42,999 bases of DNA. Source: a virus. Lineage: Duplodnaviria > Heunggongvirae > Uroviricota > Caudoviricetes. The translations under genes were made by a program, and so were the position numbers. This document shows positions 13,949 through 40,530 of the stretch, in pieces (position 1 is the first letter of the stretch; each line of letters opens with the position of its first letter). Location of the stretch: positions 1 to 42,999 of IMG/VR virus record IMGVR_UViG_2703718845_000002; one strand, given 5' to 3'. The notes below the pieces were generated by a model. It did no database searches. It saw only the letters and a program-made list of their open reading frames with translations, and had not been told where the DNA came from.

Positions 13949-14311
13949 TCAGACTCCCGTAATCAGTGCGAAATCGTCCGCCAGTCGCTCGAACGTATCT
14001 GCGAACTGGACGATCTGCCGAATCTCATCGGCCTCATCCGGCGGAGCCGCATCGGTCGACGCGCCAATCAGGATGTAATCTCCCTCCCGCGCCGTTGCGT
14101 ACTCGGTCCATATCGTGTTTTTAACCACAATCTCCCGGCCAAGGTCACCGATTTTTGCAGAGAGACCACCCTGGTAGTCGCAGAGAATAGCGTTCGGCGC
14201 TTCCCACCCGTAAGGCTGACCTCCGCCGTCGGTATCACTACCGTCAGCATCGCGTATACGCCGCCAGATTGTCGCCGTCGCGGTGTATGACCAATTAGCT
14301 ACCGAAGACAT
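13949..14311 (-). CDS. Head-tail adaptor / head closure protein
   Basis: 120 aa ORF in head-tail joining module; ATG at 14311 overlaps stop of upstream small ORF. Confidence 0.5.
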   Translation of the reverse strand: MSSVANWSYTATATIWRRIRDADGSDTDGGGQPYGWEAPNAILCDYQGGLSAKIGDLGREIVVKNTIWTEYATAREGDYILIGASTDAAPPDEADEIRQIVQFADTFERLADDFALITGV

Positions 14312-14484
14312 CAGTCATCCCTCCATCGCAGCACGGCGGCGCCTGTGGCGCGTATGCGGTCGCAGTTAATGAACCACTCACCGTCGCTTTTCACGTACGC
14401 CGTAGTTTGCTCGCCGGTATCGGTGATCACCCACACCCGGGTAAACGTCCGCGGCAGCCGTTGCTGAACTGAAACCCACGCCAT
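14311..14484 (-). CDS. Small hypothetical protein (57 aa), not in supplied ORF track
   Basis: ATG at 14484 overlapping the stop of the connector gene (TAATG), GGGGA SD, TGA overlapping the next ATG (TGATG); translation MAWVSVQQRLPRTFTRVWVITDTGEQTTAYVKSDGEWFINC... Confidence 0.45.
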   Translation of the reverse strand: MAWVSVQQRLPRTFTRVWVITDTGEQTTAYVKSDGEWFINCDRIRATGAAVLRWRDD

Positions 14485-14885
14485 TACTTATCCCCGCACA
14501 TACATCCGCCTTTACCTATCCAGATACCAGCGAATGCCGGCGAGGCGGTAGGGTCTGCAGGAATCAGAGCGCTGGCGCACCCGGATTTATCCAGACTGCG
14601 CAGCAGGTTTACGGATGACTTCCATCTGTCTGAGAATGACTGGTAACGGAATGAGCGGGATGCTCCGCTTGGCGCCGTCTGGCTGGAAATGTATTTATCC
14701 CCACTCCCGAGCCCCATCAGCGCTAGGAGGTAGAGCTGAATAAGCAAGGCTGTCGATGCCGGGTAATGTGCATCAAGGCAGTCCTGAATGCTGTTCGCCT
14801 CATCAACGAACGCCTGGAGTACAAAGTCAGGCATGGTAATCCCCTGACCTTCCAGATACTCCTTCGCTTGGTCGAGAGTTACCAT
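14484..14885 (-). CDS. Head-tail connector protein (gp6-like)
   Basis: 133 aa; N-terminal MVTLDQAKEYLEGQG... resembles gp6-type head-tail connector N-termini; follows capsid genes. Confidence 0.6.
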   Translation of the reverse strand: MVTLDQAKEYLEGQGITMPDFVLQAFVDEANSIQDCLDAHYPASTALLIQLYLLALMGLGSGDKYISSQTAPSGASRSFRYQSFSDRWKSSVNLLRSLDKSGCASALIPADPTASPAFAGIWIGKGGCMCGDK

Positions 14886-14926
14886 TATCGGCTCCGTGAG
14901 AATGAAGCCCTGTTTTCACAGGGCAT

Positions 14927-14948
14927 AAAAAAACCGCCTTAGCGGCGG
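14927..14948 (-). terminator. Rho-independent terminator (minus strand), with a second hairpin at 14906..14924
   Basis: Minus-strand RNA CCGCC-GCUAA-GGCGG followed by U7; adjacent GCCCTG-TTTTCA-CAGGGC hairpin. Confidence 0.6.
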
Positions 14949-14951
14949 CTG

Positions 14952-15245
14952 TTATTCAGCAGGGAATAGCTTTTCAAGTTCGCCATCCGGCAACAGCTCA
15001 CCAAGCTTTTCAGCCCCTATGTTTCCTTTAAACTCGATGCCTAATTCCGTCAGGCGGGCCTGAATAATCTCTTTTCGAGATTTTGTATCAGTGCCTGCTT
15101 CTGGTGTTGCCGGAGAGAGTTCCCCACCTGCTTCGCCGCGCATGAGACGAACGTTTGACTTCAGGGCCGGATGAAGATTTTCAAGTTCAACAACCTGCCC
15201 CAGCGCTACTCCATTCCACGGGCGCACCACTTCGTATTTAGCCAT
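14952..15245 (-). CDS. Hypothetical protein downstream of major capsid gene
   Basis: 97 aa, ATG at 15245; helical C-terminal segment (IIQARLTELGIEFKG...); function unknown. Confidence 0.5.
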   Translation of the reverse strand: MAKYEVVRPWNGVALGQVVELENLHPALKSNVRLMRGEAGGELSPATPEAGTDTKSRKEIIQARLTELGIEFKGNIGAEKLGELLPDGELEKLFPAE

Positions 15246-15254
15246 GCTGTTTCC

Positions 15255-16331
15255 TTACGCCAGGTTCGCGCCGTAGACAACGCCAGACAGGCCCTGATCG
15301 TCTGCAGTGATTTGCAGACCTTCAGCAGACATGATCTGGAAGTTGTAGTTAATGTTTGGGAGAGGGCGAGGTAGTGCAATAACGCCCTGAGCCATACCAA
15401 CAAGCGGAGAAATAACATCGCGACGGCGGACGTAAGCAATGAACTCATTACCGGACAGAGCGAACGTTGGGCGGATTTCTTTAACTGGCGCGAACGGCAG
15501 AACCTCCTGCAGAACATTGCCACTAATCACACCGTTCACTACGTACGGTTTTGCCAGGTTAGCCCAGATCTCATCAGATACCCACATTACGTCATAGGAA
15601 GAAACCTTGTTGGCACGTGCCGTTGTTCCGAAAGCGCCCTTTCCGAAGAACTCAATGATCTGCTCTGTAGTGGCGGTAGTCAGATCGATGTTTACGCCAC
15701 CTGCGCCAGAGCCAAGGTTAATTTTCTTGGTGTTGCGGTGGTTTTTCATACCCTGGGCAGGATAACCCTGCACCTGAATATTGGCATCACCTGAAAGGTA
15801 ATAAGCAACACGGCGCTTGTTTACTTTTTTGAGTTTCGCCATTTGCGAGTCGAGCACCAGATCTACACCAACCGAATTAAGACCTGCTGCGTGACGCCAG
15901 TTAACCCCATAGCCGGCGGTAAATACCGGAATAGGGTCGCCATCACTAGCATAGTCGGTGTGGTCAAAGGAGAACGGAGCCTGACCGTCAATGCTCACAG
16001 AAACATCATCAGCAATATCGCCGACAACGTTATATAACTTCGCCGTCTTTCCAACTGGAAGCACTGTCTGGACGCCCATCAGGTCATTGATGATTTCCAT
16101 GCCATCTTCCTGATCGCGTAGTTGCAGGATCTGGTTATCAATCTCAGCCCAGAAATCACGAGCGAAACCGCCAACAGCGTTACATGCCAACATTTCTGGC
16201 GTCATGTGCGCGCGGTTGACAGCAATCATAGCGTCATGTTGCGCGTTCCACATGTTGCGGTTAGCCCACAACTCATTCCAGTGAGCGCCAAGGCGAGCAT
16301 TAGTCGCCAGTGTCTCTTTAGAAAAGTACAT
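15255..16331 (-). CDS. Major capsid protein (lambda E-like)
   Basis: 358 aa; C-terminus (...NFQIMSAEGLQITADDQGLSGVVYGANLA) resembles the lambda gpE C-terminus as recalled; correct position and size. Confidence 0.8.
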   Translation of the reverse strand: MYFSKETLATNARLGAHWNELWANRNMWNAQHDAMIAVNRAHMTPEMLACNAVGGFARDFWAEIDNQILQLRDQEDGMEIINDLMGVQTVLPVGKTAKLYNVVGDIADDVSVSIDGQAPFSFDHTDYASDGDPIPVFTAGYGVNWRHAAGLNSVGVDLVLDSQMAKLKKVNKRRVAYYLSGDANIQVQGYPAQGMKNHRNTKKINLGSGAGGVNIDLTTATTEQIIEFFGKGAFGTTARANKVSSYDVMWVSDEIWANLAKPYVVNGVISGNVLQEVLPFAPVKEIRPTFALSGNEFIAYVRRRDVISPLVGMAQGVIALPRPLPNINYNFQIMSAEGLQITADDQGLSGVVYGANLA

Positions 16332-16348
16332 ATGCGTTTATCCTTTTG

Positions 16349-16798
16349 TTACGCGCCAGCTGCGGCGACAGTGCCAACGCGCATGCGCACGCGAATAAAA
16401 TCGGTAGTGCTGGCCGCGATGGTGTATTCATCCTGGCTGTAGCCGATCACTGAATCGGTGTCGGAGGTGGCAAGGGTGAACTGACCAGCCGTCCCAAGTT
16501 TGATAGGGCTGTCTTTCTTATACGCTCCAGGCAGGCAGCGTAACGCCAGTTCACGTCCCTCTTCGACATAGTTGCCGACCGCAGAATCACCGGCAGGAAT
16601 TGCTTCGGTGATGGTCAGTCCCTGGTGGTAGCCGACATCGATAATGTACAGGCGGCCAGTTAGTGCAGTTGCCTGAGCAAATTCATCAGAGGAGTTGATG
16701 GTAGCCGCGGTGCCTGGAAGAAGATCGGCGGCCGTGGTGCGGGTTTCGGTCTTGTAAAGAGACAGACCGTCGATATTAACGCGACGATAACGTGCCAT
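16349..16798 (-). CDS. Putative head decoration / capsid accessory protein
   Basis: 149 aa ORF between scaffold-like gene and major capsid gene, the position of lambda D; no motif-level support. Confidence 0.45.
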   Translation of the reverse strand: MARYRRVNIDGLSLYKTETRTTAADLLPGTAATINSSDEFAQATALTGRLYIIDVGYHQGLTITEAIPAGDSAVGNYVEEGRELALRCLPGAYKKDSPIKLGTAGQFTLATSDTDSVIGYSQDEYTIAASTTDFIRVRMRVGTVAAAGA

Positions 16799-16810
16799 TA
16801 TTCCGGCTCC

Positions 16811-18133
16811 TTATTTGAAGTATTCAGATGCGGCAGGAGCGCCAGTTTCTTTCGGCTGCTGAGCATTGTTGGTTCCCAACGGAGCGGCTTCACCGATAGT
16901 TTTAAACATTGCATCCAGCGCTTCACCAGACAGCGCATTGGCGACGATATCGCCGTGGACTTTCGCAACCGCTTCACGCTTGTTTTTTTCTTCAGCGCGG
17001 GAGTTGGCGGTCAGGGTTTCTGCCAGTTTCTGCTGATTGGCCTGCAGCGCATCAACCTTTTCTACAAGAGGCTTAATAGCCGCATCGGTATTAGTCGCAA
17101 CAGCCTGGCCGATCATGCTGCCGATTTGTTCCAGTTCTTCTTTGGTTAAAGGCATGTCGCCCTCCGTTTTGTGGTTTGGTGCAGGCTGTTCCTGCGGTGT
17201 GAATAGAGCTTTAAGTTTGTTAGTGACTACAGCCACCCACGACTCCTGTCGTGCAACTGCGGTGCCGGTATCGTCGAAGGTGATAATCCCGCCTTCTGAC
17301 TTGTAGCCAAACACCTCAGCATTGCCGCCGTTACGGATGATTACCGCTTGCGAGTCAGTGAAGTCAGCCACCCAGGCGTATTCGTCCTGGCCGCTCGCAA
17401 ACTTAGCTTTGGCAGCTCTATCGAGGCGCTGCTCGCGCTCCCGGTAAGATTCTCCGATCAGCGCGCCAGAATTGGCCTTTAACGGCTTCGCCATGTCAGC
17501 ATTAACCATCAGGCCAACACCTTGCTCAGGGGTGGCCGCTCCGACCTCATGCAGGAGAATCGCGTCATGGTCCATGCTGTGAATCTTCGCCACCCAGTCG
17601 GCACCTGTTGCGCGCTGCTGCTCATTTGGTTCAAGTTGATCGAGGAAAGCAGCCACACTGGTATGAATGGGTGGTACGTCTTCACCGCGCTCGATAGCCG
17701 CGACACGCTCAAGCAATTCTTTACCGCCTTCCGACTCGCCAGCGCGGGCCACATCGACCCACTTTTCGAGATAGATGCGATTACCGGACTTCTTAACATT
17801 GCGGTTCCACGCGCCGATATGGCCGGCATTAATCCCTTCAGGAGAAAACGCGGATACGAACTGGCCGTTAACCTGTGGGTGCCCCAGCGGCGCCAGAGTG
17901 CCCTCCAGCCCCTGATAGTGGGCATTGATTTCATCTTCCGTGTACAACCCGCCATTCATAACGACGTTCGCCGGAAGCGTGTAGCTCGGCAGCACCAGGT
18001 GCTCACGCCCATTGTACGTTTCGCGTCGGATAGACTGGCTATTCACCTTAGTGGTGATATTGACCTGAATGTGCTCACCATTTTGCGATGCCGGGATTGG
18101 ACGCTTTGCTTCGTGGTTTACCTGTAATTTCAT
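16811..18133 (-). CDS. Putative scaffolding / prohead core protein
   Basis: 440 aa with helical E/K/A/Q-rich C-terminal third, between minor head protein and capsid genes. Confidence 0.55.
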   Translation of the reverse strand: MKLQVNHEAKRPIPASQNGEHIQVNITTKVNSQSIRRETYNGREHLVLPSYTLPANVVMNGGLYTEDEINAHYQGLEGTLAPLGHPQVNGQFVSAFSPEGINAGHIGAWNRNVKKSGNRIYLEKWVDVARAGESEGGKELLERVAAIERGEDVPPIHTSVAAFLDQLEPNEQQRATGADWVAKIHSMDHDAILLHEVGAATPEQGVGLMVNADMAKPLKANSGALIGESYREREQRLDRAAKAKFASGQDEYAWVADFTDSQAVIIRNGGNAEVFGYKSEGGIITFDDTGTAVARQESWVAVVTNKLKALFTPQEQPAPNHKTEGDMPLTKEELEQIGSMIGQAVATNTDAAIKPLVEKVDALQANQQKLAETLTANSRAEEKNKREAVAKVHGDIVANALSGEALDAMFKTIGEAAPLGTNNAQQPKETGAPAASEYFK

Positions 18134-18146
18134 AGCTGTTAGCTCT

Positions 18147-19097
18147 CTATGCCGCGTGTTTATAACCGCAGCAACTGGAATGGTTGACCTTCATCTTCTT
18201 CCAATGACTGTCGAATTCCTTCTTAGCCATTTCGATGACGTTCGGATAAAGCGGCTTACCATCTGCATCAACAAGCACTTCCACTTGGCTGCATTTGCAG
18301 TTTATTGCATTAGCATCAACGGCATACCAGTCCCTGACCTCCTGAACTGTGTATGTGTGCGCGTGTCTCAGAGCATGCTTTATTCGCGTTGTTGGGCTTA
18401 ATGCGGAAAGGTGGAGAAGCCTGATGTTTAAGCCGAGATCATCCATTGAAGACTCAGCTTCATCCCATCGAGCCCGGCGCAGCGCAGTGGTAACCTCAGT
18501 GCGCGCTATCCGGTTCGCCCGACGTTTTTCGATGCCAGTCTGTGCGGTAAGGTTCCTGGCAATATCCAGCGGGTTAAGCCCTCGCCCTACACCATCAGTC
18601 AGCACGCGAGCCATGTCGCGCTTTACTTCTGCACTCAGGCCTTTCATTTCCTCAAACACACGCGCATGCACCAGCGTCATTCGTTGCTGGTACGGGTTGC
18701 TTGCAAGGATGGAGGCCAGGGACTCACGTCCAGCGGCGTACACCGGCGACTGCTGGCTGAGGTTGTAGAATGACTGTCCTGTGCCTTTCTCTGACGCCAA
18801 ATCGACATACTCATAAAACCACAGGTCGTACTCGTTACCATCCAGAAGCACCTGATCAACCAGATAACTGGCATCATTCAGGATGATGGATAGTAGGGTT
18901 GGGTTTAGCTGGTATTCGTATCTGGCGTTTACTGCGAGAGAGAATGGTATTTTGTCGAGTGCTGCTTTGTACGCTTTGCCAATCTTATTCATCCGCCTGG
19001 CGAAGTCTTTCATCGCCCGGCGTTCCAGCGCATCAGCTCCGGTCGGGTCCTGATAGTTACGCGGTAGAATCGGTGGCTTCGTCTTCTTCGCTGCCAT
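18147..19097 (-). CDS. Minor head protein (head morphogenesis, F-like)
   Basis: 316 aa following and overlapping the portal gene by 41 nt; composition and position typical of SPP1 gp7 / Mu F-like proteins. Confidence 0.65.
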   Translation of the reverse strand: MAAKKTKPPILPRNYQDPTGADALERRAMKDFARRMNKIGKAYKAALDKIPFSLAVNARYEYQLNPTLLSIILNDASYLVDQVLLDGNEYDLWFYEYVDLASEKGTGQSFYNLSQQSPVYAAGRESLASILASNPYQQRMTLVHARVFEEMKGLSAEVKRDMARVLTDGVGRGLNPLDIARNLTAQTGIEKRRANRIARTEVTTALRRARWDEAESSMDDLGLNIRLLHLSALSPTTRIKHALRHAHTYTVQEVRDWYAVDANAINCKCSQVEVLVDADGKPLYPNVIEMAKKEFDSHWKKMKVNHSSCCGYKHAA

Positions 19098-28209: not shown

Positions 28210-28231
28210 TTATGTGCGGTCGATGATTGAA

Positions 28232-28492: not shown

Positions 28493-28510
28493 TCTTTTCT
28501 CCTTGTTTAA

Positions 28511-28953: not shown

Positions 28954-28989
28954 AAAAATCCCCTCTGCTGTGGAGGGGATTATACATTA

Positions 28990-29187: not shown

Positions 29188-29301
29188 TTTCACGCCACCT
29201 AAGCAAATGAAGAATAGGTAAACACATTACCACGCCCTCACTTCCAGCCAAACAGATCTTTACCTCCTGCGCGGCTTTGCGTTCGGCGGGGGATTTAGGC
29301 A

Positions 29302-29523: not shown

Positions 29524-29534
29524 GCAGTTCGACC

Positions 29535-29954: not shown

Positions 29955-30340
29955 GACTTACCTCCGCTGAGCATGGCGGCGCGGCAGGCGTTCCACATAT
30001 CAGCCGCGATGCAGCACGCATATTCATCTGGATTTGAAGTCGGCAGAATGCCTTTGATGACTTCATAATCAGGCTCAATAGCTGACGGCACCACCGGAGC
30101 TGGCTGCGGGGCAGCGAATATTTCGACACCTTCTGGTAACTGCTGATAAAGTGAGACGTGAATGCTTTTCCTCTCCCCAGCACCGACATATCGGACAATG
30201 CCAACCGGCTCGCTGTCCATTGCGGCCAGCGCCATGCGGGCTAGATAAGATGCCTCACCGCACTGCACGTGATCGGTTTCAATAATTTCGAGTAACTGCT
30301 CTCTGGTTATGGTTGATTTGGTCATTGTTTTATTCTCCAT
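29951..30340 (-). CDS. Hypothetical protein
   Basis: Track ORF to 30346 begins with TTG; ATG at 30340; 129 aa. Confidence 0.5.
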   Translation of the reverse strand: MENKTMTKSTITREQLLEIIETDHVQCGEASYLARMALAAMDSEPVGIVRYVGAGERKSIHVSLYQQLPEGVEIFAAPQPAPVVPSAIEPDYEVIKGILPTSNPDEYACCIAADMWNACRAAMLSGGKS

Positions 30341-30521
30341 CGCCAATCGCCTTATTCAGCTGGTCAAGGACGATATCAGTCATGATGCCTTTGCCATTCA
30401 CTTTGATGTGGGCCTGTATTTCGCTGCGCGCCGCTTTGAGTGTGCCGACGCTGACGAATACCCGGCGCTGGTTTTCTGCGTTTATCTTGCGCAGGCGCTC
30501 TAAAGCTGTTTTCTCTGCCAT
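30330..30521 (-). CDS. Hypothetical small protein
   Basis: Track ORF to 30524 begins with GTG; ATG at 30521 overlaps upstream stop (ATGA); 63 aa. Confidence 0.5.
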   Translation of the reverse strand: MAEKTALERLRKINAENQRRVFVSVGTLKAARSEIQAHIKVNGKGIMTDIVLDQLNKAIGDGE

Positions 30522-30889
30522 CACTCAGCCTCCACCTTGATGCCAGCGGCGGCCAGCGCCGCGTTAACTTCTGCCTCGGGGTATGCGTATATTGCGCAGT
30601 GCGCCGCAGTGAACTCTCGGCGATGCAAAACGCTAATAGGCTTCGGCAGCTTCACGGTGCGGGACTCCAATGACGACAAAAGCGCTTTAATTTCTCCTTG
30701 CTGAAATGCAATCGTCTCCTGCGCCTTCTCCAGCGCCTCTACCAGCGCGATGACATTGTTTGGGTTAGCCAGGGCGTAAAATTTCTCCGCCGCCGCACGG
30801 CCTTTCGAATACCGGGCGATAATGGCGAGCTCTTTGGCATCGATCGCTGCCGCTTTCAGGCTCTGCGCCAGTTCGGTGATATCAGTCAT
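30521..30889 (-). CDS. Ead/Ea22-like protein (tentative)
   Basis: 122 aa helical protein in the early-right accessory region; family assignment from remembered sequence pattern only. Confidence 0.4.
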   Translation of the reverse strand: MTDITELAQSLKAAAIDAKELAIIARYSKGRAAAEKFYALANPNNVIALVEALEKAQETIAFQQGEIKALLSSLESRTVKLPKPISVLHRREFTAAHCAIYAYPEAEVNAALAAAGIKVEAE

Positions 30890-31145
30890 TGGCCTTTCCC
30901 TCGCTGCGGAACATCATGATTGTCAGGTCGCCTTTAGTGGCCAGGCGAACGGTAGAGCCAGGTTCCAGGCTGTTAAGCTCAAAGGCGTCATAAAACTCAT
31001 TCACAGCTTTCTGGCGGCGAGATTCCTTACGACGCTTGTCCCACTGCCTCAGAGCATTTTTGGTAATCCACTGGCCTGTTTTAACCATGATGTATGCCCA
31101 TCCCAGAATGGCTAAACCGGTATTGAGGTAAGTGGCGATGCTCAT
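30882..31145 (-). CDS. Small membrane protein
   Basis: Track ORF to 31181 begins with GTG; ATG at 31145 overlaps upstream stop; N-terminal TM helix IATYLNTGLAILGWAYIMV. Confidence 0.45.
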   Translation of the reverse strand: MSIATYLNTGLAILGWAYIMVKTGQWITKNALRQWDKRRKESRRQKAVNEFYDAFELNSLEPGSTVRLATKGDLTIMMFRSEGKAND

Positions 31146-31588
31146 TTCCCGGCCCCCTCGCGCAGCGAGTCTGCCAGCCACTGCAAATTCATGATCTGCA
31201 CGCCGATATTGCTGAACTTTTTATCCAGGTGAGCGATGGCCTTCTCAACTCCGCGCGCCTCGGCTTCGGCCATGATGCGATCGGTGGCGGGGGTTTCGAT
31301 ATTGTTGAGAGCGTCAGTAAACCCGCCCCTTTCCATGCCAAGTTCGGCTTCATAGTCGGCATCAAATGCAGCGTTTTTGCAGAAATTCTTCAGCGCCACA
31401 TTCTCCGCAGCCAGCTGAGCATTTGGGTCTGCCAGCATATTCCCGGTTTTTATGGCGGCATCCAGTGAAGCGCTGCAAATGCGGAACTCTTTCGCCAGCT
31501 TCAGGAACTTCTGTTCTCTGATCGACGGCTCGCCTGCGCTCTCAAGGGAGGCGATGAGCTCGTTTAGTGCCTGTAATGTGATAGTCAT
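31142..31588 (-). CDS. Hypothetical protein
   Basis: Track ORF to 31645; in-frame ATG at 31588 overlaps upstream stop (ATGA); 148 aa. Confidence 0.5.
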   Translation of the reverse strand: MTITLQALNELIASLESAGEPSIREQKFLKLAKEFRICSASLDAAIKTGNMLADPNAQLAAENVALKNFCKNAAFDADYEAELGMERGGFTDALNNIETPATDRIMAEAEARGVEKAIAHLDKKFSNIGVQIMNLQWLADSLREGAGK

Positions 31589-31881
31589 GCTGATGTTCTC
31601 CCGTAAACAGCCAGTACCCGTTTCATCGCTGGGCTTTGCCGACACTCGTTAAAAATCTGATTGGTGCTCTTCCTGCCTGAAATTTCTTCTTCAGTGGCCA
31701 ACCGGTAGTAAACCGTACGCCACACCCGAGCTTCCGCTACCAGCACCCCCTGCTTTGCCAGGATATTTGCAGCCTGGTTGATGCAGGTATGCGTCATTCC
31801 TGAAGCCGCGGCGACATCTGGAGAGCTGCAGGTTTTATGCGTTTTCAGGTAGTTCAGAATTACGTCTTTGCCTGTCATCAT
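31585..31881 (-). CDS. Putative winged-helix DNA-binding protein
   Basis: About 98 aa; track start 31887 is GTG, ATGs at 31881 and 31878 (the latter overlapping the upstream stop). Confidence 0.5.
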   Translation of the reverse strand: MMTGKDVILNYLKTHKTCSSPDVAAASGMTHTCINQAANILAKQGVLVAEARVWRTVYYRLATEEEISGRKSTNQIFNECRQSPAMKRVLAVYGRTSA

Positions 31882-32468
31882 TGCCACCTGTTCTCAAGAA
31901 GCGCCTGTCCGTTGCGAATGAGCTTGGCCTTGTCCTTCTCGCCAATCAGAAATGGCATTGGTTCGCGCTGGAATCCCGCGCGCATGTTCTGCGCATCATC
32001 CATGCCGATCATCACCGTTTCGCACTTGCTGACGCCGGTTATCAGGTAAGAGCGGTAACGCTTTTCGAACTCGCGGGAACGGAACGGCAATTCCTCTTCG
32101 CTCATCCCGGCAAATTCAATCCACCCACCCATATCGGCAATGACCGCATGGATGATCGGATCATCAAACACAACGCTGTTGCGGCGCCCATAACTGCAGA
32201 TTGCCCTGTATGCTTTCGACCAGGCCATCAGCGCTTTGCCATCTTTGTTGCCTTCGATGTGACGAAGAAGATCCGCAGGCTTAGGGAAAAACTGGCCGTT
32301 GTCGGTATCGCGGGTATGCCCCCGGAAGGAGCGCATCACATCTTCAACCGGGTAAGGCTTGAGGGCATTCCAGTAAATACCCACCATCACCTCGGATATA
32401 TCCTTTCCGTAAATCTCGCCGATCGCTGCCATGGACTGGGCGAACTTTGGTTTTTCAGAATCGTTCAT
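31878..32468 (-). CDS. Replication-module protein of unknown type (lambda P position)
   Basis: 196 aa directly downstream of and coupled (ATGA) to the O-like initiator; no DnaC-type Walker motifs recognised. Confidence 0.5.
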   Translation of the reverse strand: MNDSEKPKFAQSMAAIGEIYGKDISEVMVGIYWNALKPYPVEDVMRSFRGHTRDTDNGQFFPKPADLLRHIEGNKDGKALMAWSKAYRAICSYGRRNSVVFDDPIIHAVIADMGGWIEFAGMSEEELPFRSREFEKRYRSYLITGVSKCETVMIGMDDAQNMRAGFQREPMPFLIGEKDKAKLIRNGQALLENRWQ

Positions 32469-33487
32469 CAGAAAAGTTCTCCTGAATCAGTGCCGCCAGC
32501 CCAGCGCTGGAGGGTTTCAAGGTTGCGAGCCGTTGTGGCTGAGTACTGGCCCTGAGAAATTGCCATTGCGTGAGCATCGCCGGCCATATCACGAAGTTTT
32601 TCGACCTGAGCAGCGTCTCGCAGGAGCGTCTCAATGCCGTCATAGCGCTTTCTGGAAGGGTTCTTTCCCATAAGCCACGGATCGCCTTTTGCGCCAGTTA
32701 TGGCCCGGCACAGCTCGTCCACAGTGAAGCCTTCCGCCAGTCGCGCCTTGATGCGCTTGCGGCGTTTGTCGTCGAGTTTTGCTGACGGGTGGTCATGTTC
32801 TTTCTGCCAGTGGGTGAAAACCAGTCTTACAGGGTCGGTCTTCGGCTGCTCCTGAATAACCGGATCGGGATCTGGTTTTCCACACTCGTCCCCAGCGGGG
32901 ACTATAGGGGTTAGATCTGTTTTTATATTTGTCTTTGAAAGAATGTCTTTGGTGTTCCCTGTTTCCGGGGATACCTTTCCCTGTTTTTGGGGATGGTTAT
33001 CCCTGTTTTCAGGGATGGTTGGCGCGGCTATTCTGCTATCCCTAATTTCAGGGATGGTGATAACCTGCGTTTCAACTTCAGCGACCGGAAAACTCACCGG
33101 ACATTTAGGGCATTTCGGTTTGGTATAAGCCCATGCATCCAGACAGGTGTTGATCCCGATGTATCGTGTTTGCCCAATCCTGCGAACCTTGATGATGTTG
33201 CGATAAGCAAGGCTGAGAACCGCTTCAGAAACGTGCTTAACCGCCAGCATGGTTTTGTCAGCGATGAGGCTGTTAGCGATCCGGTCTTCTTTTTTCGACC
33301 AGCCATACGTCAGGCGAACAATTGCATTCAGCACGCGAAATTCGCGCCCCGAAAGCTCCACTACACACAAGGCGTCCTGAATCTGGTTAGCAAGGCGCAG
33401 ATAGCCATTGTCCAGATCAGCCATGCGACTCTCCTGCTGTACCTTTTCCGGCACAGGGAAATTGATTACTTCGGCAGTATTTGCCAT
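32468..33487 (-). CDS. Replication initiator protein (lambda O-like), contains ori iterons
   Basis: 339 aa; N-terminal REFRVLNAIVRLTYGW resembles the replisome-organiser domain; four DNA iterons lie in the middle of the gene as in lambda O. Confidence 0.75.
   Translation of the reverse strand: MANTAEVINFPVPEKVQQESRMADLDNGYLRLANQIQDALCVVELSGREFRVLNAIVRLTYGWSKKEDRIANSLIADKTMLAVKHVSEAVLSLAYRNIIKVRRIGQTRYIGINTCLDAWAYTKPKCPKCPVSFPVAEVETQVITIPEIRDSRIAAPTIPENRDNHPQKQGKVSPETGNTKDILSKTNIKTDLTPIVPAGDECGKPDPDPVIQEQPKTDPVRLVFTHWQKEHDHPSAKLDDKRRKRIKARLAEGFTVDELCRAITGAKGDPWLMGKNPSRKRYDGIETLLRDAAQVEKLRDMAGDAHAMAISQGQYSATTARNLETLQRWAGGTDSGELF
32951..33062. repeat. Replication origin iterons (four ~19-bp repeats) with adjacent AT-rich tract
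   Basis: Four repeats read directly (TCCCTGTTTCCGGGGATA, TCCCTGTTTTTGGGGATGG, ATCCCTGTTTTCAGGGATGG, ATCCCTAATTTCAGGGATGG) at about 32956, 32978, 33001, 33039; AT-rich tract 32916..32950. Confidence 0.7.
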
Positions 33488-33572
33488 AATTACTCCTGTG
33501 AATTTGTTCAGTTAATTCGCGTAGAAAGCCGTTAGTGTTCCCGCACTGCGGCTTTCGCCCTTCTGTTTCCAC

Positions 33573-33794
33573 TCATGCTTCAAAATCACCTTTCTCTCCC
33601 GGCCTGTTAGAAATCAGGATGGCCAGCAGTAGCGACATGTTCGGCAGCAGACTTTCCCGCCAGCGACTCACCGTCGACTTATTCACTCCGGCCACTTTGG
33701 CGATATTCGTGGTTCCCAGTTCAGCTATCTGGCTGTGTAACCAGCTTTCTATCCTGCGAGCCTCCACTTTGTTGCGTGTCGTTGAACTCTCCAT
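33573..33794 (-). CDS. cII: CII transcriptional activator
   Basis: RIESWLHSQIAELGTTNIAKVAGVNKSTVSRWRESLLPNMSLLLAIL closely parallels lambda CII; ATG at 33794 with AGAGGAAG SD. Confidence 0.85.
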   Translation of the reverse strand: MESSTTRNKVEARRIESWLHSQIAELGTTNIAKVAGVNKSTVSRWRESLLPNMSLLLAILISNRPGEKGDFEA

Positions 33795-33873
33795 TTGTGA
33801 TACTTCCTCTGGTGGTGTTTGGAATGGCTGAATTACTCAGTCAGAACCCGCTGACTGCTCAATTCAGCTTTGT

Positions 33874-34065
33874 TTAATCAGGATTTCTGTTATGTGGGAA
33901 AGGCTTGATCTCCTCAGCCTTAATTTTTCCATCAGGCAGGGTGTTAACGAAAATCTTCCGCCCTACCCGGATAGCTTTACTAATTGCGGTCTGGTGAACG
34001 CCGATGGCATCAGCAGCTCTTGCCTGTCCAACTTCGTCAACGTATTCAGCTAAAGAAATTTTCAT
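33874..34065 (-). CDS. cro: Cro repressor
   Basis: 63 aa from ATG at 34065 (AGGAG SD): MKISLAEYVDEVGQARAADAIGVHQTAISKAIRVGRKIFV...AEEIKPFP parallels lambda Cro; the track ORF extends upstream through the operator region. Confidence 0.85.
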   Translation of the reverse strand: MKISLAEYVDEVGQARAADAIGVHQTAISKAIRVGRKIFVNTLPDGKIKAEEIKPFPHNRNPD

Positions 34066-34169
34066 GTGGTTAGCTCCTATCAACTCATGAGCAAACAATA
34101 CCACAAGTATTAAACATTGCAATACCGCTAGTATTTTTAAAATAAGAACATTGGTATTACTATTTGAAA
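34066..34169. promoter_or_regulatory. OR region: operators and divergent pR / pRM promoters
   Basis: Two 15-bp palindromic operators AATACCACAAGTATT (34097..34111) and AATACCGCTAGTATT (34121..34135), 24 bp centre to centre, between divergent cro and cI; a third degenerate site may lie near 34145..34160. Confidence 0.7.
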
Positions 34170-34880
34170 ATGGAAAAGAAAAAGACACTGACATCGGCTC
34201 AGATCGCTGACGCAGAAAGGCTGAAAGCCCTCTATGAAGCCAAGAAAAAAGAGCTTGGGATAACACAGCAATCAATAGCTGACATGCTAGACATATCTCA
34301 GGGGGGCGTTGGGCATTACTTGAATGGCAGGAATGCCCTTAATGCTGCCGTGGCTGCTGTTTTTGCCAGAGCCCTCCAGGTGGATGTCTCTGATTTTAGC
34401 CCCAGCCTTGCGAAAGAAATATCTGCAATGAGTGCTTCCGCTACATCGAATGCCAAGTATGCAGGCCAGTACACCCCAGGCATTAAATACCCTGTATTAA
34501 GCAAGATTCAGGCTGGGCATTGGTCGGAAGCGTGCGAGCCGTATGCACTTAAAGATATCGATCTATGGCTAGAATCAGACGCTCACATCCAGGGGGATGC
34601 GTTCTGGTTGTTGGTCGAGGGGGAATCCATGACTGCCCCGGTCGGGCTCAGCATACCAGAGGGTACCTACGTTTTGTTTGATACCGGCCGAGAGCCAGTA
34701 AATGGCAGCCTTGTGATCGCAAAGCTATCCGAATCAAACGAAGCGACATTCAAAAAGCTGATTATTGATGGGGGCCAGAAGTACCTGAAGGGCTTAAACC
34801 CTCAATGGCCATTGGTTCCCATCAATGGGAATTGCCGGATCATTGGTGTGGCTGTAGAAACTAAGTTGAGACTTGTGTGA
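34170..34880 (+). CDS. cI: CI repressor (HTH plus LexA/S24-like autocleavage domain)
   Basis: MEKKKTLTSAQIADAERLKALYEAKKKELGITQ and C-terminal GESMTAP ... FKKLIIDGGQKYLKGLNPQWP parallel lambda CI; track start 34164 is TTG, first ATG at 34170. Confidence 0.9.
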   Translation: MEKKKTLTSAQIADAERLKALYEAKKKELGITQQSIADMLDISQGGVGHYLNGRNALNAAVAAVFARALQVDVSDFSPSLAKEISAMSASATSNAKYAGQYTPGIKYPVLSKIQAGHWSEACEPYALKDIDLWLESDAHIQGDAFWLLVEGESMTAPVGLSIPEGTYVLFDTGREPVNGSLVIAKLSESNEATFKKLIIDGGQKYLKGLNPQWPLVPINGNCRIIGVAVETKLRLV

Positions 34881-34981
34881 TCAGCAGCATGCCGCGGACG
34901 TACAGGAAGCATGGGTAGTCGGTAGTGGACTGACAAGGTGTTTGGGTGATGAGAAGATAGCAATAACTTAGAGGCTTAAAT

Positions 34982-35746
34982 GTGATCAGAATAGGAAGGT
35001 TACTACCTGGCGGCATTGCAATTGACGAAGGGCAACATCACCCGATAAAGGGCGTTGCTCTTTTGATAAAAGAAAATAGCGAACCAGAAGAGATTGTTGT
35101 TTTTGCAAAAGAAATTTCTTCCAGGAGCATTTCTATAGAAATAACCTGCGCAGCCTTGGGAAGAGCTCTATCCCTGCCTATACCCGAGCCAGTACTACTG
35201 TTTGACAGCTCAAACAAAGCATTTTTTGGTAGTGTTGATGCTACCTATCCGAGTTTCATGAAGTATGTTTCTAACTCTTCAGATCAGGCCGTTTCTGATG
35301 CTTTGGCATCATGGCCGTTATTGAAAAAAGCTAGCTATTTTGATGAGTGGATTGCGATGGATGACCGTCACAACGGAAATTTGCTTTTCAATGGTGATGG
35401 TTTCTTCCTGATAGACCATGAATCGGCAATTCCCCAAGGTCTTGCCCCTGACCTTTTCGGGATAGATTATTACTCCAATCAATTGCTGCAGGTAGCAACT
35501 TACATACTCGATAGAAGTAATGATATAGCCGTTCAGATGATGGCAAATGAGGCGAGAGCTTGGACCATGTCTTGCAAGAGTAACACCCTAACGCTATTAG
35601 ATGGAGAGATATCCGAAACAGTTCAAGGTAAAGAGAAAAATCAAATAATGTCTTTCCTTTCATCTAGAATTGAGTTACTAGGAGACATTCTTTATGATCA
35701 AATCAAGCCCCAACAAACACAGATGATATACGATGCTAAATCTTGA
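34982..35746 (+). CDS. Kinase-like protein (HipA/CtkA-like or APH-like catalytic motifs), first gene of rex-position cargo operon
   Basis: GTG start with AGAGG SD 9 nt upstream, no in-frame ATG nearby; 254 aa; AT-rich; motifs VVFAKEI, MDDRHNGNLLF (D-x-H-x-x-N) and FFLIDHES. Confidence 0.6.
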   Translation: MIRIGRLLPGGIAIDEGQHHPIKGVALLIKENSEPEEIVVFAKEISSRSISIEITCAALGRALSLPIPEPVLLFDSSNKAFFGSVDATYPSFMKYVSNSSDQAVSDALASWPLLKKASYFDEWIAMDDRHNGNLLFNGDGFFLIDHESAIPQGLAPDLFGIDYYSNQLLQVATYILDRSNDIAVQMMANEARAWTMSCKSNTLTLLDGEISETVQGKEKNQIMSFLSSRIELLGDILYDQIKPQQTQMIYDAKS

Positions 35747-36614
35747 TCAGCTTCTTAAGTCAGCTCCTGCTATGCCTGCAACATCAGGGCGCTGGGCATC
35801 TGTTTATCTTGAACCAATGATCGGCTCAGGAGAGCGGCTCACGGTAGCAGTTGCCACGATAACATCATCTGGTGAAATTTTAGTTAAGCCGGCAATCAGA
35901 AAAGAAGTTATAGAAGCTATGTATGGCTTCAAAGCACCAGCATTTATCAATGTGGTTGATCTGATTTTGTCGAGTTTGAAGTTGCATCTGGCTGCTAAGG
36001 GGGATTTCGTATCATGGCATCCTCCAGTTACAGGCGTCACTATAAGCGCCGTAAGGAATGCTGCGTCATCAAGCCCTGTTGGCATACTCCGCCAAGCGGT
36101 ATCATTGTCATCGAGTTTGTCATCACTCCTTGAGGCTGAAGAAGATTCCGATGGGTTGCCAGCTAAGCAATCAAGAACTAAAGACAGGTGGCCAATTCAA
36201 ATCTTTGATGCGGTTATCAGCGCTGACGGACGCAGGGATATTTTTTTCAATAGAAGCTTCACCTTTAGTGATGGACACAGACCGGCTAAAATTTTCTATC
36301 TAAGCGATCATGCAGCTATCAACACCGGAAAACTGTTACCCCACAACTTGAATGAGCAGGTTAAGGATGGAAAAGCAAAAATATCTGACTTATCAATGAT
36401 AAAAAGGCAAGGCGATATTTTTCCAAGAGAAACTCATCAAATGATTATCTACAAACCGGAAGATGATAGCCCTGCATACAATGATAGGCACATAGCATCA
36501 ATAAATAGTGCGTACCTTTCTTTACAGGACTTGGCTAACACCTACGATGTATCAATCACTTCTGTAAGCACTGCCGAGCATGCAGCAAGGTTAATATTGC
36601 AAACTGCAGCATAA
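35733..36614 (+). CDS. Unknown partner protein of rex-position operon (tentatively DUF3037-like N-terminus)
   Basis: ATG at 35733 overlaps the 3' end of the kinase-like gene by 14 nt; 293 aa; AT-rich; N-terminal YLEPMIGSGERLTVAVA; no recognisable catalytic motif. Confidence 0.6.
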   Translation: MLNLDQLLKSAPAMPATSGRWASVYLEPMIGSGERLTVAVATITSSGEILVKPAIRKEVIEAMYGFKAPAFINVVDLILSSLKLHLAAKGDFVSWHPPVTGVTISAVRNAASSSPVGILRQAVSLSSSLSSLLEAEEDSDGLPAKQSRTKDRWPIQIFDAVISADGRRDIFFNRSFTFSDGHRPAKIFYLSDHAAINTGKLLPHNLNEQVKDGKAKISDLSMIKRQGDIFPRETHQMIIYKPEDDSPAYNDRHIASINSAYLSLQDLANTYDVSITSVSTAEHAARLILQTAA

Positions 36615-36621
36615 CTTTTGA

Positions 36622-36645
36622 TCCGGCCACCGCGCCGGGTTTTTA
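36622..36645 (+). terminator. Rho-independent terminator ending the cI/cargo operon
   Basis: Plus-strand CCGGC-CACCGC-GCCGG followed by T5, 8 nt after the stop of the second cargo gene. Confidence 0.55.
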
Positions 36646-36650
36646 CTGCC

Positions 36651-36854
36651 CTACTCTTCCCTCAGCATCAGCACGTCCAGCGCCAACTCCACAGCCAGAT
36701 CGACCTGGTCTTCCTGCCACAACACCTGAATCATCTCTATCAGCGCCTCTCTTGAGGGCTCGCGCTTCTCAACCAGCAGTTGCATAACCACTATCCCGAT
36801 GACCTGCGCTATCTGCGGGTGCATTTCTGCGAAAAACTCATCCTCATTTGACAT
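36651..36854 (-). CDS. Small acidic protein, convergent to the cargo operon
   Basis: 67 aa, ATG at 36854 with AAAGGGG SD; pI strongly acidic (ending LMLREE); GC content like the phage backbone; promoter would lie in the OL region. Confidence 0.45.
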   Translation of the reverse strand: MSNEDEFFAEMHPQIAQVIGIVVMQLLVEKREPSREALIEMIQVLWQEDQVDLAVELALDVLMLREE

Positions 36855-36924
36855 GCCAACACCCCTTTATGATGTTTTTTTGAGCATAACAGCACTTTTT
36901 ACAAAAATAAATTAACTTTAAAAT

Positions 36925-36996
36925 CATACCTTTAGTATTTTTATTAAACATCATAATACTGGCGGTATTGATATAAAATAATACCGGGAGTATTAT
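36925..36996 (+). promoter_or_regulatory. OL region: three operators and pL promoter
   Basis: Operators CATACCTTTAGTATT (36925..36939), AATACTGGCGGTATT (36955..36969), AATACCGGGAGTATT (36980..36994), same consensus as OR; sigma70-like pL with -35 TTGATA (36968..36973), 17-bp spacer, -10 TATTAT (36991..36996). Confidence 0.7.
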
Positions 36997-37075
36997 GATC
37001 TCATCCAAACAACACCGGCAACGCCGGGGTGAAGTCAAAACGTCCCGTTAGCCGCGATAAGGCAAAGGTGAAGAG

Positions 37076-37192
37076 ATGATCCGCGAAGAAGATAAAACCG
37101 AGTGGTTTAAGTTTCTGGCACACGCATTCGCCATCGTCGTATGCGTACTGATAGCAAGTGCGTTCTGCCTGATGCCTGGTGGTTCAGCATGA
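37076..37192 (+). CDS. Tiny membrane peptide (38 aa), first gene after pL; not in supplied track
   Basis: ATG at 37076 with AAGGTGAAGAG SD; MIREEDKTEWFKFLAHAFAIVVCVLIASAFCLMPGGSA has one predicted TM helix; stop overlaps the next ATG. Confidence 0.45.
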   Translation: MIREEDKTEWFKFLAHAFAIVVCVLIASAFCLMPGGSA

Positions 37193-37299
37193 GCAGAAAC
37201 GGCATTCGTTCACTGATTTACTGCCTGCTGATCTGCGGAGTTATCTGGACAGCGTTGATTATCAAAATTCTGCACGTTACGGGGGTGTTCAATGGCTAA
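37189..37299 (+). CDS. Tiny membrane peptide (36 aa), translationally coupled; not in supplied track
   Basis: ATG at 37189 overlapping the previous stop (ATGA); MSRNGIRSLIYCLLICGVIWTALIIKILHVTGVFNG has one TM helix; stop overlaps the start of the next ORF. Confidence 0.4.
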   Translation: MSRNGIRSLIYCLLICGVIWTALIIKILHVTGVFNG

Positions 37300-37486
37300 C
37301 TCAATTCCTAACAGCGGACGCGCCGTGATGATGCGTAACGCTAAAACTGGCGCCACATGGAAGGTTTCACGTGACTACCTGAAAGAAACCTTCTGGTTCG
37401 AGCCTCAAGGCAACCTGCGCCACATTCGCAAAGCATTTGAGGCACGCGACCTGCTGCCAAACCTGGTACCAGCTGGGACGCATTAA
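37292..37486 (+). CDS. Hypothetical small protein in early-left operon
   Basis: 64 aa, ATG at 37292; not Arg-rich, so not an obvious N-type antiterminator. Confidence 0.45.
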   Translation: MANSIPNSGRAVMMRNAKTGATWKVSRDYLKETFWFEPQGNLRHIRKAFEARDLLPNLVPAGTH

Positions 37487-37573
37487 CCGCGCATATCAGC
37501 GCACGAATTTAACTGAGCTATCAGGCAGCCAATACGGTGCCGGGATTCTTACAACCAAATTTCAGGGGAAACC

Positions 37574-38545
37574 ATGAGCGAAATAATGGATTTAGTCGTC
37601 ATCGAGAAAAAGAACGCGATGGCGGTTTTCACCAATAACGACCAACTCGATCCGCTTATCGAAGCGATCGAAAAAGAGGCTCGCAGTCTGGTGCCGGACG
37701 TGACCACCAAAAAAGGCCGCGATGCTATCGCATCCATGGCTCACAAGGTCGCGCGCTCTAAAACCTACATCGACAACGCAGGTAAAGCCCTGGTCGCTGA
37801 GCTGAAGGCGCTGCCAAAGCAGATTGATGAAAGCCGCCGCGTTGTCCGTGAGCGTCTCGATGCACTGAAAGATGAAGTGCGTCGCCCGTTGACCGAATGG
37901 GAGGCTGAGCAGGAACGCATTAAGGCCGAAGAAGCCATGAACGCCCTTCACGTCGAAGCACTGGCCATGAATGAAGAGTTCGATCGGCAGCTGGCAGCTC
38001 GGATTGAGTCTGACCACGAAATGGCCATGCTGATGAATGACGCTTTCGACCGAGAGCAGGCAGATAAAGCAGCTGAGGCTGAGCGCCAGCGCATTGCCCA
38101 TGAAGAAGAAATTAAGCGAATGGCAGCCGCCGCAGCAGCCCGAGAAGTTGAGCAGCGCGCACAGCGTGAACGTGAAGAAGCGGCGCATCGCGAAGCTGTG
38201 TTGAAAGCACAAGCTGAGCAGGCAGAGCGAGATCGCATTGCAGCCGAGAAGAAAGCTGAGGCTGACAAGCAGGCCGCTATCGAAGCGGAGCGCCGCAAAG
38301 CTCAGGAAGAAGCCGATCGCATCCGCCGCGAGGCAGAGCAACGCGAACAGGCCCGCCTGGCTGAGGAGAAACGTAAAGCCGATGAGCAGGCTCGCCGCGA
38401 AGCCGACGTTAAGCACCGCAAGGCTGTAGGCACTGAAATCGTCAAAGCTCTTCTGGCCAATACCAGCCTTACTCGGGATCAGGCTATCGAGGTGCTTACA
38501 GCGGTTAAAGACGGCCGCATTCCCCATACCGGTATCAGTTACTGA
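37574..38545 (+). CDS. Coiled-coil protein with E/R/A/K-rich repetitive central region
   Basis: 323 aa, ATG at 37574 with GGGGAA SD; central 150 aa is highly charged low-complexity helix (AEAERQRIAHEEEIKRMAAAAAAREVEQRAQREREEA...); in the kil/cIII position upstream of gam. Confidence 0.6.
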   Translation: MSEIMDLVVIEKKNAMAVFTNNDQLDPLIEAIEKEARSLVPDVTTKKGRDAIASMAHKVARSKTYIDNAGKALVAELKALPKQIDESRRVVRERLDALKDEVRRPLTEWEAEQERIKAEEAMNALHVEALAMNEEFDRQLAARIESDHEMAMLMNDAFDREQADKAAEAERQRIAHEEEIKRMAAAAAAREVEQRAQREREEAAHREAVLKAQAEQAERDRIAAEKKAEADKQAAIEAERRKAQEEADRIRREAEQREQARLAEEKRKADEQARREADVKHRKAVGTEIVKALLANTSLTRDQAIEVLTAVKDGRIPHTGISY

Positions 38546-38552
38546 GGTGCTT

Positions 38553-38837
38553 ATGAACGCATACCGCGCATACGACGCTATCGAAGAAAGGAAATGGGCT
38601 GAACAGTCGCTAACCGAAGAGAAGCAAAAGTGGATTGACGATCGGGCGCAGGAAATTATCGACGCCCTGCCGAAAGAGCCGTCAGGCCTGTTCCGCTTCT
38701 CTGTGCCGATGGACAAAAGCCCATACGAAGGCCTCCGCAGCGATGCAGCTGGCGAGGCATATAACGATCTCATCTCGGCAGTAGCTTATGCCCAGGCGGA
38801 ATATGACTGGGACCACCGCACCGGCTGCCCGTTTTAA
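38553..38837 (+). CDS. Gam-like host nuclease inhibitor
   Basis: Track start 38547 is GTG; ATG at 38553 with GAGGTG SD gives MNAYRAYDAIEERKW..., resembling lambda GamS MNAYYIQDRLEAQSW...; immediately upstream of bet. Confidence 0.55.
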   Translation: MNAYRAYDAIEERKWAEQSLTEEKQKWIDDRAQEIIDALPKEPSGLFRFSVPMDKSPYEGLRSDAAGEAYNDLISAVAYAQAEYDWDHRTGCPF

Positions 38838-38852
38838 CTTTGGGGAATAACA

Positions 38853-39698
38853 ATGGCTAACGAACTTGTGATTACAGCCGGCTCTCTTGCTGAGAGAGGC
38901 ATTGACGGCGCTACCTGGAGCGCCCTCAAAAACAGTATTTACCCTGGCGCCAAGGATGAGTCGGTGATGATGGCACTGGACTACTGCCGGGCCAGAAACC
39001 TTGATCCGCTTCTTAAGCCCGTTCATCTGGTGCCAATGAGCGTTAAGGACTCGAAGTCGGGAAAAAGCGAGTGGCGCGATGTGGTTATGCCTGGCATCGG
39101 GCTTTATCGGATTCAGGCCGATCGCTCCGGTTCTTACGCTGGCGCAAAAGAACCAGAGTTCGGCCCGGACGTCACTCTGACGCTTACCGGTATTGAAGTG
39201 ACCGTGCCTCAATGGTGCAAGTACACGGTCAGCAAGCGCATGCCCAGCGGGGAGATCGTCGAATTCAGCGCGAAAGAATACTGGGTTGAGAACTACGCAA
39301 CCGCCGGCCGCGACACTACCGCGCCAAACGCAATGTGGAAAAAGCGCCCCTATGGCCAGCTGGCGAAGTGTGCCGAGGCTCAGGCTCTGCGTAAGGCGTG
39401 GCCTGAAATTGGCCAGCAGCCCACTGCCGAAGAGATGGAAGGTAAAACACTGGAAGTTGATGCGCGTGACGTAACGCCGCGAACCACGACAGAGGCGCTC
39501 CCCCTGGTGGCCAGTGAGGAAACGTTGCAGGCAATTACCGACCTCCTGACGTCCCTGAATAAGGACTGGGAGCAGGACTTCCTGCCTCTGTGCAGCAACA
39601 TCTTCAAGCGTGACATTTTCCAGGCATCACAACTCACCGAAGAAGAAGCGCAGAAAGGCTTTAGCTTCCTCCAGAAAAAAGCGCAGGTGGCAGCATGA
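38853..39698 (+). CDS. bet: Bet / RecT-family single-strand annealing protein
   Basis: C-terminus [40 protein letters not shown] closely parallels lambda Bet; ATGA overlap with exo. Confidence 0.85.
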
Positions 39699-40375
39699 CA
39701 CCAGAAATTATCCTCGAACGAACTGGCATTGACGTTACCCGCGTTGAACAGGGAGATGAATCCTGGCACCGCTTACGCCTGGGCGTGATCACCGCCTCGG
39801 AAGTCCATAACGTCATTTCGAAGCCGAGATCAGGCACCAAGTGGACTGACATGAAAATGTCTTATTTCCACACGCTGCTCGCAGAGGTATGCACCGGCGC
39901 GGCGCCGGAAGTTAACGCCAAGGCGCTGGCCTGGGGAAAACAGTATGAGGCCGACGCTCGAACCCTGTTTGAGTTCACCACCGACGTGAAGGTAACGGAG
40001 TCACCGATCCTTTTCCGTGACGAAGGTATGCGCACCGCCTGCTCACCAGACGGCCTGTGCAGTGATGGCCGCGGCCTTGAGCTGAAATGCCCTTTCACCT
40101 CTCGCGACTTCATGAAGTTCCGGCTTGGCGGCTTCGAGGCTATCAAATCCGCCTACATGGCCCAGGTGCAATTCAGCATGTGGGTAACCAGGAAGGACGC
40201 CTGGTATTTCGCGAATTATGACCCTCGCATGAAGCGAGAAGGCATTCATCACGTGGTTGTTGAGCGCGACGACAAATACATGTCCGACTTCAACGAAATG
40301 GTGCCGGAGTTCATCGAGAAGATGGACGAATCGCTGTCGGAGATCGGTTTCACCTTCGGGGAACAGTGGAAATGA
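39695..40375 (+). CDS. exo: Lambda exonuclease (Exo)
   Basis: [40 protein letters not shown]...GFTFGEQWK is near-identical in pattern to lambda Exo along its whole length. Confidence 0.9.
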
Positions 40376-40530
40376 AAACTAACCACGACGGAATCACCGT
40401 TGGAAGTATCACTCTTCCCTATTCCATCAATCGCCGGGGATGGATCGCCCCAAGCGGCGACGTTATCAAAAATCCATTAAAGGCTCAGCGGCTGGCTGAG
40501 CTGATGAACAGTAAGAAGGTGATGGCATGA
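40372..40530 (+). CDS. Small hypothetical protein (52 aa), not in supplied track
   Basis: ATG at 40372 overlapping the exo stop (ATGA) and TGA overlapping the methyltransferase ATG; [52 protein letters not shown]. Confidence 0.4.

Follow-up and report, generated by a model that had tools for sequence, protein, structure and literature searches.

Three conserved small genes joined to their neighbours by overlapping stop and start codons in a Klebsiella-type lambdoid prophage

The viral record IMGVR_UViG_2703718845_000002 of the IMG/VR database, of which we analysed positions 1 to 42,999 (hereafter the window), is a 43-kb lambdoid (pro)phage with a GC content of 52% whose nearest public relatives are prophage-derived phages of Klebsiella pneumoniae. 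A preliminary description of this DNA had singled out three open reading frames (ORFs), here named ORF1, ORF2 and ORF3 (Table 1), as genuine small genes that fall below the size cutoff of the supplied ORF track. The sequence, the ORF list and the translations place all three at the coordinates and lengths it had given, and each is shorter than 60 amino acids (aa), the default of the ORF lister. We conclude, with a probability of roughly 0.93, that ORF1, ORF2 and ORF3 are real genes for small proteins, carried by a Klebsiella-type lambdoid prophage, and that each falls into a catalogued family. As they belong to families that have already been described (ES18 gp12/DUF551-like, YlcG and Orf60a/DUF1317) and their arrangement is textbook, their omission amounts to a routine gap in annotation, with no new feature behind it. 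It shows that a cutoff of 60 aa loses real, conserved phage genes. The biochemical roles that we suggest for the three proteins are putative throughout.

The evidence that carries this conclusion is comparative. For each ORF, 80 related viral contigs were fetched from IMG/VR, in the case of ORF2 through an alignment query; one of the 80 ORF2 loci ran off its contig end, leaving 79 for comparison. The frame of ORF1 is intact in all 80 loci (57 aa in 74 of them, 56 aa in the other six), that of ORF2 in 79/79, always with 46 aa, and that of ORF3, with 52 aa, in 78 of the 80. All intact copies of each ORF use the same ATG as their start. Purifying selection acts on the encoded proteins: pooled Nei-Gojobori estimates of the ratio of non-synonymous to synonymous substitution rates (dN/dS) are 0.09 for ORF1, 0.21 for ORF2 and 0.25 for ORF3 in the claimed frames, and 1.1-2.3 in the two shifted frames. 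Consistent with this, variable sites are enriched at third codon positions in the alignments of all three ORFs. Interrupted frames in close homologues had been named beforehand as the observation that would overturn the three genes. With the frames intact and dN/dS low, the close homologues speak for them instead.

Each of the three ORFs can also be aligned, from end to end or nearly so, with a curated protein family. ORF1 aligns to phrog_1261 over positions 1-57 of 57 (E-value of 6e-36). ORF2 scores 89.3 bits against the NCBIfam model NF033498 'YlcG_phage_expr' (cutoff 30), covering model positions 1-41 of 41, and matches phrog_2705 over its full length (E-value of 9e-28). ORF3 scores 73.6 bits against Pfam DUF1317 (PF07026; cutoff 22.3) with residues 1-49 of its 52, and matches phrog_1998 over its full length (E-value of 5e-26).

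Each of the three starts on or within the upstream stop codon and ends on the downstream start codon, as the preliminary description had reported. All six junctions are overlaps of 1 or 4 nucleotides (nt), denoted -1 and -4. In ORF1 the upstream junction is TAATG (14482-14486), where the TAA stop of the DUF7370 gene shares 1 nt with the ORF1 ATG, and the downstream junction is TGATG (14309-14313), where the ORF1 TGA stop shares 1 nt with the ATG of the gp13-like gene. ORF2 has 4-nt ATGA overlaps with NinG (26087-26090) and with Q (25950-25953), so that the Q ATG takes its A from the end of the last ylcG codon and its TG from the ylcG stop. ORF3 likewise has 4-nt ATGA overlaps with exo (40372-40375) and with the MT-A70 methylase gene (40527-40530). 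This geometry is kept in the related loci. The -1 overlap is found upstream of ORF1 in 79/80 and downstream in 74/80, the -4 overlap at the two ORF2 junctions in 79/79 and 78/79, and the -4 overlap downstream of ORF3 in 79/80.

All six starts have predicted anti-Shine-Dalgarno pairing energies (dG) of -5.7 to -10.3 kcal/mol, compared with a mean of -2.5 at random positions. The Shine-Dalgarno motif of the gp13-like gene, GGAGGG, lies within the 3' end of ORF1 (anti-Shine-Dalgarno dG -9.8), and that of the MT-A70 gene, AAGAAGGTGA, within the 3' end of ORF3 (dG -6.5). Among co-directional gene pairs of prokaryotes, no spacing motif is commoner than an overlap of -4 or -1, and none couples more efficiently by termination and reinitiation (PMC12548453); all six junctions have this canonical spacing. 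Two routes most likely contribute to the translation of each small gene. In one, ribosomes initiate at its own Shine-Dalgarno site, which lies near the 3' end of the gene before it; in the other, ribosomes that terminate at the overlapping stop reinitiate. The 3' end of each small gene in turn supplies the Shine-Dalgarno motif and start codon for the next gene. That a small gene carries the ribosome-binding site of its neighbour is not new in kind.

Some points weigh against this picture. The coupling is deduced purely from geometry, and the expression of ORF1, ORF2 and ORF3 in this prophage is predicted. Given a Shine-Dalgarno motif at every start, all of the translation could come from independent initiation. 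Of the earlier wording 'translationally coupled', the -1 and -4 spacing therefore stands as observed, and functional coupling is what we infer from the overlaps together with the Shine-Dalgarno motifs. The overlaps are not peculiar to the three ORFs: about 20 of the 69 same-strand junctions in the window are -4, -1 or -8, so that overlapping stops and starts are the norm here.

Table 1. Positions of the three small ORFs and their immediate neighbours in the window.
Feature	Position	Strand	Description	Basis
ORF1	14311..14484	-	ATG start, 57 aa	sequence, ORF list, translation
ORF2	25950..26090	-	ATG start, 46 aa	sequence, ORF list, translation
ORF3	40372..40530	+	ATG start, 52 aa	sequence, ORF list, translation
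ORF1 upstream neighbour, 133 aa	14484..14885	-	DUF7370 / ES18 gp11-like head-tail region protein	Pfam DUF7370, E 1e-51
ORF1 downstream neighbour, 120 aa	13949..14311	-	ES18 gp13-like	phrog_797, E 2e-50
ORF2 upstream neighbour	26087..26731	-	NinG/Rap junction-specific endonuclease	Pfam NinG, E 4e-62
ORF2 downstream neighbour	25453..25953	-	Q-type late antiterminator	Pfam Phage_antitermQ, E 1e-21; phrog_943, E 3e-70
ORF3 upstream neighbour	39695..40375	+	lambda Exo-like (YqaJ) recombination exonuclease	Pfam YqaJ, E 3e-30
ORF3 downstream neighbour	40527..41186	+	MT-A70 family DNA methyltransferase	Pfam MT-A70, E 2e-23; phrog_359, E 1e-98

ORF1 is 52% identical to gp12 of Salmonella phage ES18 over 56 residues (E-value of 7e-25), and the product of its downstream neighbour is 28% identical to ES18 gp13 (E-value of 2e-8). 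The gene order 11-12-13 and the 1-nt overlap of genes 11 and 12 in ES18 are the same as in the window, whereas gp12 is slightly longer (59 aa, compared with 57 for ORF1) and overlaps gene 13 by 8 nt instead of 1 nt. The family is enterobacterial and small in extent: a set of 1.8 billion proteins contains 27 representatives of it when clustered at 50% identity. The AlphaFold model (AF2) of ORF1 is predicted with high confidence, with a predicted local distance difference test score (pLDDT) of 95.9, and has four main strands and a short helix. When this model was searched against BFVD, whose targets are themselves predicted models, the top matches were nearly all DUF551 proteins (probability 1.00, TMq 0.72-0.81); we found no solved DUF551 structure.

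Sequence profiles point in the same direction. ORF1 itself falls below the gathering threshold of Pfam DUF551 (PF04448), with 16.5 compared with 22 bits and an alignment limited to the N-terminal 31 positions. Still, 22 of 37 members of the ORF1 family match DUF551 weakly (E-values up to 0.1, best 1.4e-4). In the same set of 1.8 billion proteins the ORF1-family profile reaches the proteins P0209, P0213 and P0218 with E-values of 1e-5 to 8.5e-4, and these three score 40-53 bits on Pfam DUF551, above its threshold. DUF551 proteins such as E. coli CPS-53 YfdS and the C-terminal domain of Stx-phage Ea22 V2 share with ORF1 the predicted fold and an N-terminal W-x-S-V-x-x-R-L-P motif. They differ in that ORF1, with 57 aa, is shorter than the 68-position model and lies in a late structural operon, not among early or accessory genes. 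Taken together, the homology and the modelled fold identify ORF1 as a homologue of ES18 gp12 and a predicted stand-alone, DUF551-fold small beta-barrel of the late head-tail operon.

Whether ORF1 is a core component of the virion, located in the neck, or an accessory late protein is a question on which the evidence divides. The gene belongs to the head-tail joining block and is coupled there by stop and start codons to either neighbour; these neighbours hardly vary over the 80 loci, and the dN/dS of ORF1 is the lowest of the three ORFs. All of this would suit a neck protein. However, Pseudomonas phage phi297 joins its gp11-like gene directly to its gp13-like gene at -4, with no ORF1 homologue between them, and only 41 phage records contain ORF1 compared with 278 that contain the DUF7370 gene. 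Some relatives moreover hold one more gene, of 127 aa, in that slot, and elsewhere DUF551 domains typically occur in phage proteins that are early or accessory (PMC10834534, PMC4776307). ORF1 thus looks accessory, and we consider a core role unlikely but not far-fetched.

The 127-aa gene occurs in Klebsiella phage vB_Kpn_RAH1 (L002 2026..2409) and in five IMG/VR loci (for example L044), where it follows the ORF1 homologue and precedes the gp13-like gene; a 3-nt spacing there replaces the 1-nt overlap. The slot after ORF1 is thereby marked out as a hot spot for insertion within the head-tail operon. A separate irregularity concerns a 174-aa database protein (P0199) in which a C-terminal part of DUF7370 runs into residues 1-44 of the ORF1 family; a frameshift or an error of gene calling at the TAATG junction is a more probable cause than a natural fusion.

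ORF2 is a 46-aa basic protein of the YlcG family, with a net charge of about +5 by our own count, and occupies the last slot of the nin region, between the Holliday-junction resolvase NinG and Q. Its database homologues carry PF26818, and about 275 clusters of them are named 'YlcG family protein'. The AF2 model predicts a helical hairpin (helices 3-19 and 22-40) with moderate confidence (pLDDT 69). With YlcG of E. coli K-12 (b4509, DLP12 cryptic prophage) ORF2 shares 45% of its residues, the length of 46 aa, the ATGA overlap with an upstream Holliday-junction resolvase gene and the position just upstream of a Q antiterminator. There are also differences: the resolvase is RusA in DLP12 and NinG in the window, the C-terminal tails diverge (..GAGV in K-12 YlcG, ..PGETA in ORF2), and in DLP12 a gap of 86 nt precedes quuD, whereas the ORF2 stop overlaps the Q start. 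In K-12, rusA-ylcG has been regarded as an operon with stationary-phase induction of its mRNA (PMC12844172, citing Hemm et al. 2008). Support for expression of the YlcG protein is indirect, coming second-hand from the name of the model and from that citation, and the other E. coli papers that mention ylcG contain no functional information. On the strand opposite ylcG, a TTG-initiated ORF of 47 aa (25934..26077, plus strand) is open, which we take to be an antisense shadow of the ylcG coding frame.

ORF3 is a homologue of lambda Orf60a (lambdap39; DUF1317), to which it is 57% identical over 49 residues (E-value of 4e-21), and directly follows exo in the early operon of pL. An alternative GTG start at 40366 would yield 54 aa, but the homologues, including lambda Orf60a, start at the ATG. 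In lambda, orf60a (31169..31351) overlaps exo (31348..32028) by 4 nt, as the ATGA of ORF3 and exo does here. Lambda Orf60a is longer, however (60 compared with 52 aa), and is followed by orf63 with a 28-nt overlap, where the window has the MT-A70 methyltransferase gene joined by ATGA. Ribosome profiling has confirmed lambda Orf60a, whose predicted fold, a small beta-sheet plus helix, is similar to DNA-binding domains; when the gene is deleted, survivors and lysogens are more numerous and induction is slower, which is a pro-lytic role (PMC8614690, PMC6213356). In lambda and phi24B the gene is dispensable and tips development toward lysis (PMC6213356, PMC10695390), and a CRISPR interference (CRISPRi) screen classed it as non-essential (PMC10695390). 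By analogy with the genetics of lambda and phi24B, ORF3 may have a similarly non-essential, pro-lytic role. The two disrupted orf60a-like copies among the 80 loci are a frameshift after about codon 5 (L134) and a 5' truncation that keeps residues 18-52 (L154); prophage decay, recombination scars or assembly errors could account for them.

The junctions of ORF2 and ORF3 are kept even where the neighbouring genes are exchanged. Among the related loci, ORF2 is flanked upstream by at least seven unrelated families, NinG or RusA types among them, and downstream by four unrelated Q families. ORF3 is flanked by six upstream families and 14 unrelated downstream families. Positional conservation profiles show that the conserved cassette starts about 9-10 nt before the ATG of the small gene and ends exactly at its stop codon. 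Because the ylcG cassette begins ahead of its ATG in this way, otherwise unrelated NinG- and RusA-type proteins share an 'E-A-A-stop' C-terminus (26091..26099; loci L166-L245), and the last three codons of these upstream genes are at the same time the conserved ylcG Shine-Dalgarno motif GGAGGCCGC, which puts the mosaic joint about 9-10 nt ahead of the ylcG ATG. At the 3' end of the orf60a-like gene, the sequence AAGAAGGTG..GCATGA (40510..40530) provides the Shine-Dalgarno motif and the ATG for all 14 unrelated downstream families (loci L083-L162), and conservation drops abruptly past the ATGA. This pattern is the classic gene-boundary mosaicism of lambdoid phages. The loci show such modules joined exactly at overlapping stop and start codons, which is again not new in kind.

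A more speculative reading of these cassettes is that ylcG is a portable coupling or regulatory adaptor for the late-gene switch, or that the basic, predicted helical YlcG peptide acts together with Q. If the invariance of the junction reflects selection, translation of Q, and hence the timing of late genes, would be gated by translation through YlcG. We regard this as improbable but worth recording, and a similar, weaker case can be made for orf60a with its 14 unrelated downstream genes.

Taken further, the same observations might suggest that the small ORFs serve mainly as translational bridges that pass ribosomes between modules, with peptide sequences that are dispensable. The ylcG and orf60a cassettes do hold an exact -4 junction beside unrelated neighbours, and the conserved block stops precisely at the ATGA and takes in the Shine-Dalgarno motif of the next gene. 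However, the amino acid sequences are clearly under purifying selection, with many invariant residues along the whole length, and deletion of orf60a from lambda or phi24B has phenotypes (PMC6213356). Nor is coupling of ylcG to Q universal, as the 86-nt gap to quuD in K-12 shows. We therefore consider this reading very unlikely.

The preliminary description had called ORF2 'NinH-like', after the Fis-like DNA-binding protein of lambda (PF06322). A short or diverged NinH would be small and basic, as ORF2 is, and would occupy the slot that ORF2 does, directly after ninG with a 4-nt overlap. Yet ORF2 has no Pfam NinH match at E-values up to 10, BLASTP against lambda NinH gives an E-value of 7.5, and the 89 bits on the YlcG model and the 45% identity to K-12 YlcG place it elsewhere. 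The gene order differs as well, since lambda has ninI between ninH and Q, where ORF2 abuts Q. Having no detected sequence similarity to lambda NinH, ORF2 is 'NinH-like' in position only. We reject the NinH identity on the Pfam and BLASTP results, give it barely any credence, and propose to rename ORF2 as 'YlcG family'.

Could the three frames be open by chance, in non-coding spacers between real genes? When dinucleotide shuffles were made with the junctions held fixed, 13-20% left each frame open, so an unbroken frame of some 50 codons is not rare. Openness by itself is thus weak evidence, and the case for genes rests on conservation and purifying selection. The shuffles alone are not decisive. 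Among 758 candidate small start sites (30-59 aa, all six frames of the window), ORF1, ORF2 and ORF3 were the only ones joined at both ends, by -1 or -4 junctions, to ORFs of at least 90 aa. Against chance frames stand the dN/dS of 0.09-0.25 in the claimed frames and above 1 in the shifted ones, a length and start that are identical in nearly all of some 240 related loci, the matches of all three ORFs to curated families and the confidently predicted fold of ORF1. An Rfam scan found no RNA family in any of the three ORF intervals. The dN/dS values and the conservation rule out chance ORFs for practical purposes, and we would assign them next to no probability.

That ORF1 is a fragment of ribosomal protein L13 (uL13) can be dismissed: GenBank, NR and UniRef records do give its family the name '50S ribosomal protein L13', including the copies L001 1812..1985 and L002 2413..2583, but no Pfam Ribosomal_L13 match appears even at E-values up to 10, NCBIfam yields just a chance beta-propeller match, the gene lies in a phage structural operon, and its predicted fold and profile tie it to DUF551. 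The name looks like a propagated misannotation, and we suggest 'DUF551-like, ES18 gp12 family' in its place. In RefSeq, the ES18, SPN3UB and Oslo homologues are already named 'DUF551 domain-containing protein'.

Two further features of the window lie apart from the three ORFs. A 45-aa ORF (23348..23485, minus strand), probably another real gene below the size cutoff and then the fourth, matches phrog_20573 with an E-value of 1.9e-24 and sits, without stop/start coupling, between the lysis genes and a putative small terminase gene. Just 3' of the Q gene are two tRNA genes (25119..25278, minus strand), a tRNA-Arg (anticodon UCU) and a tRNA-Met type (anticodon CAU), whose position resembles that of the tRNA clusters which follow Q in lambdoid phages of the Stx type.

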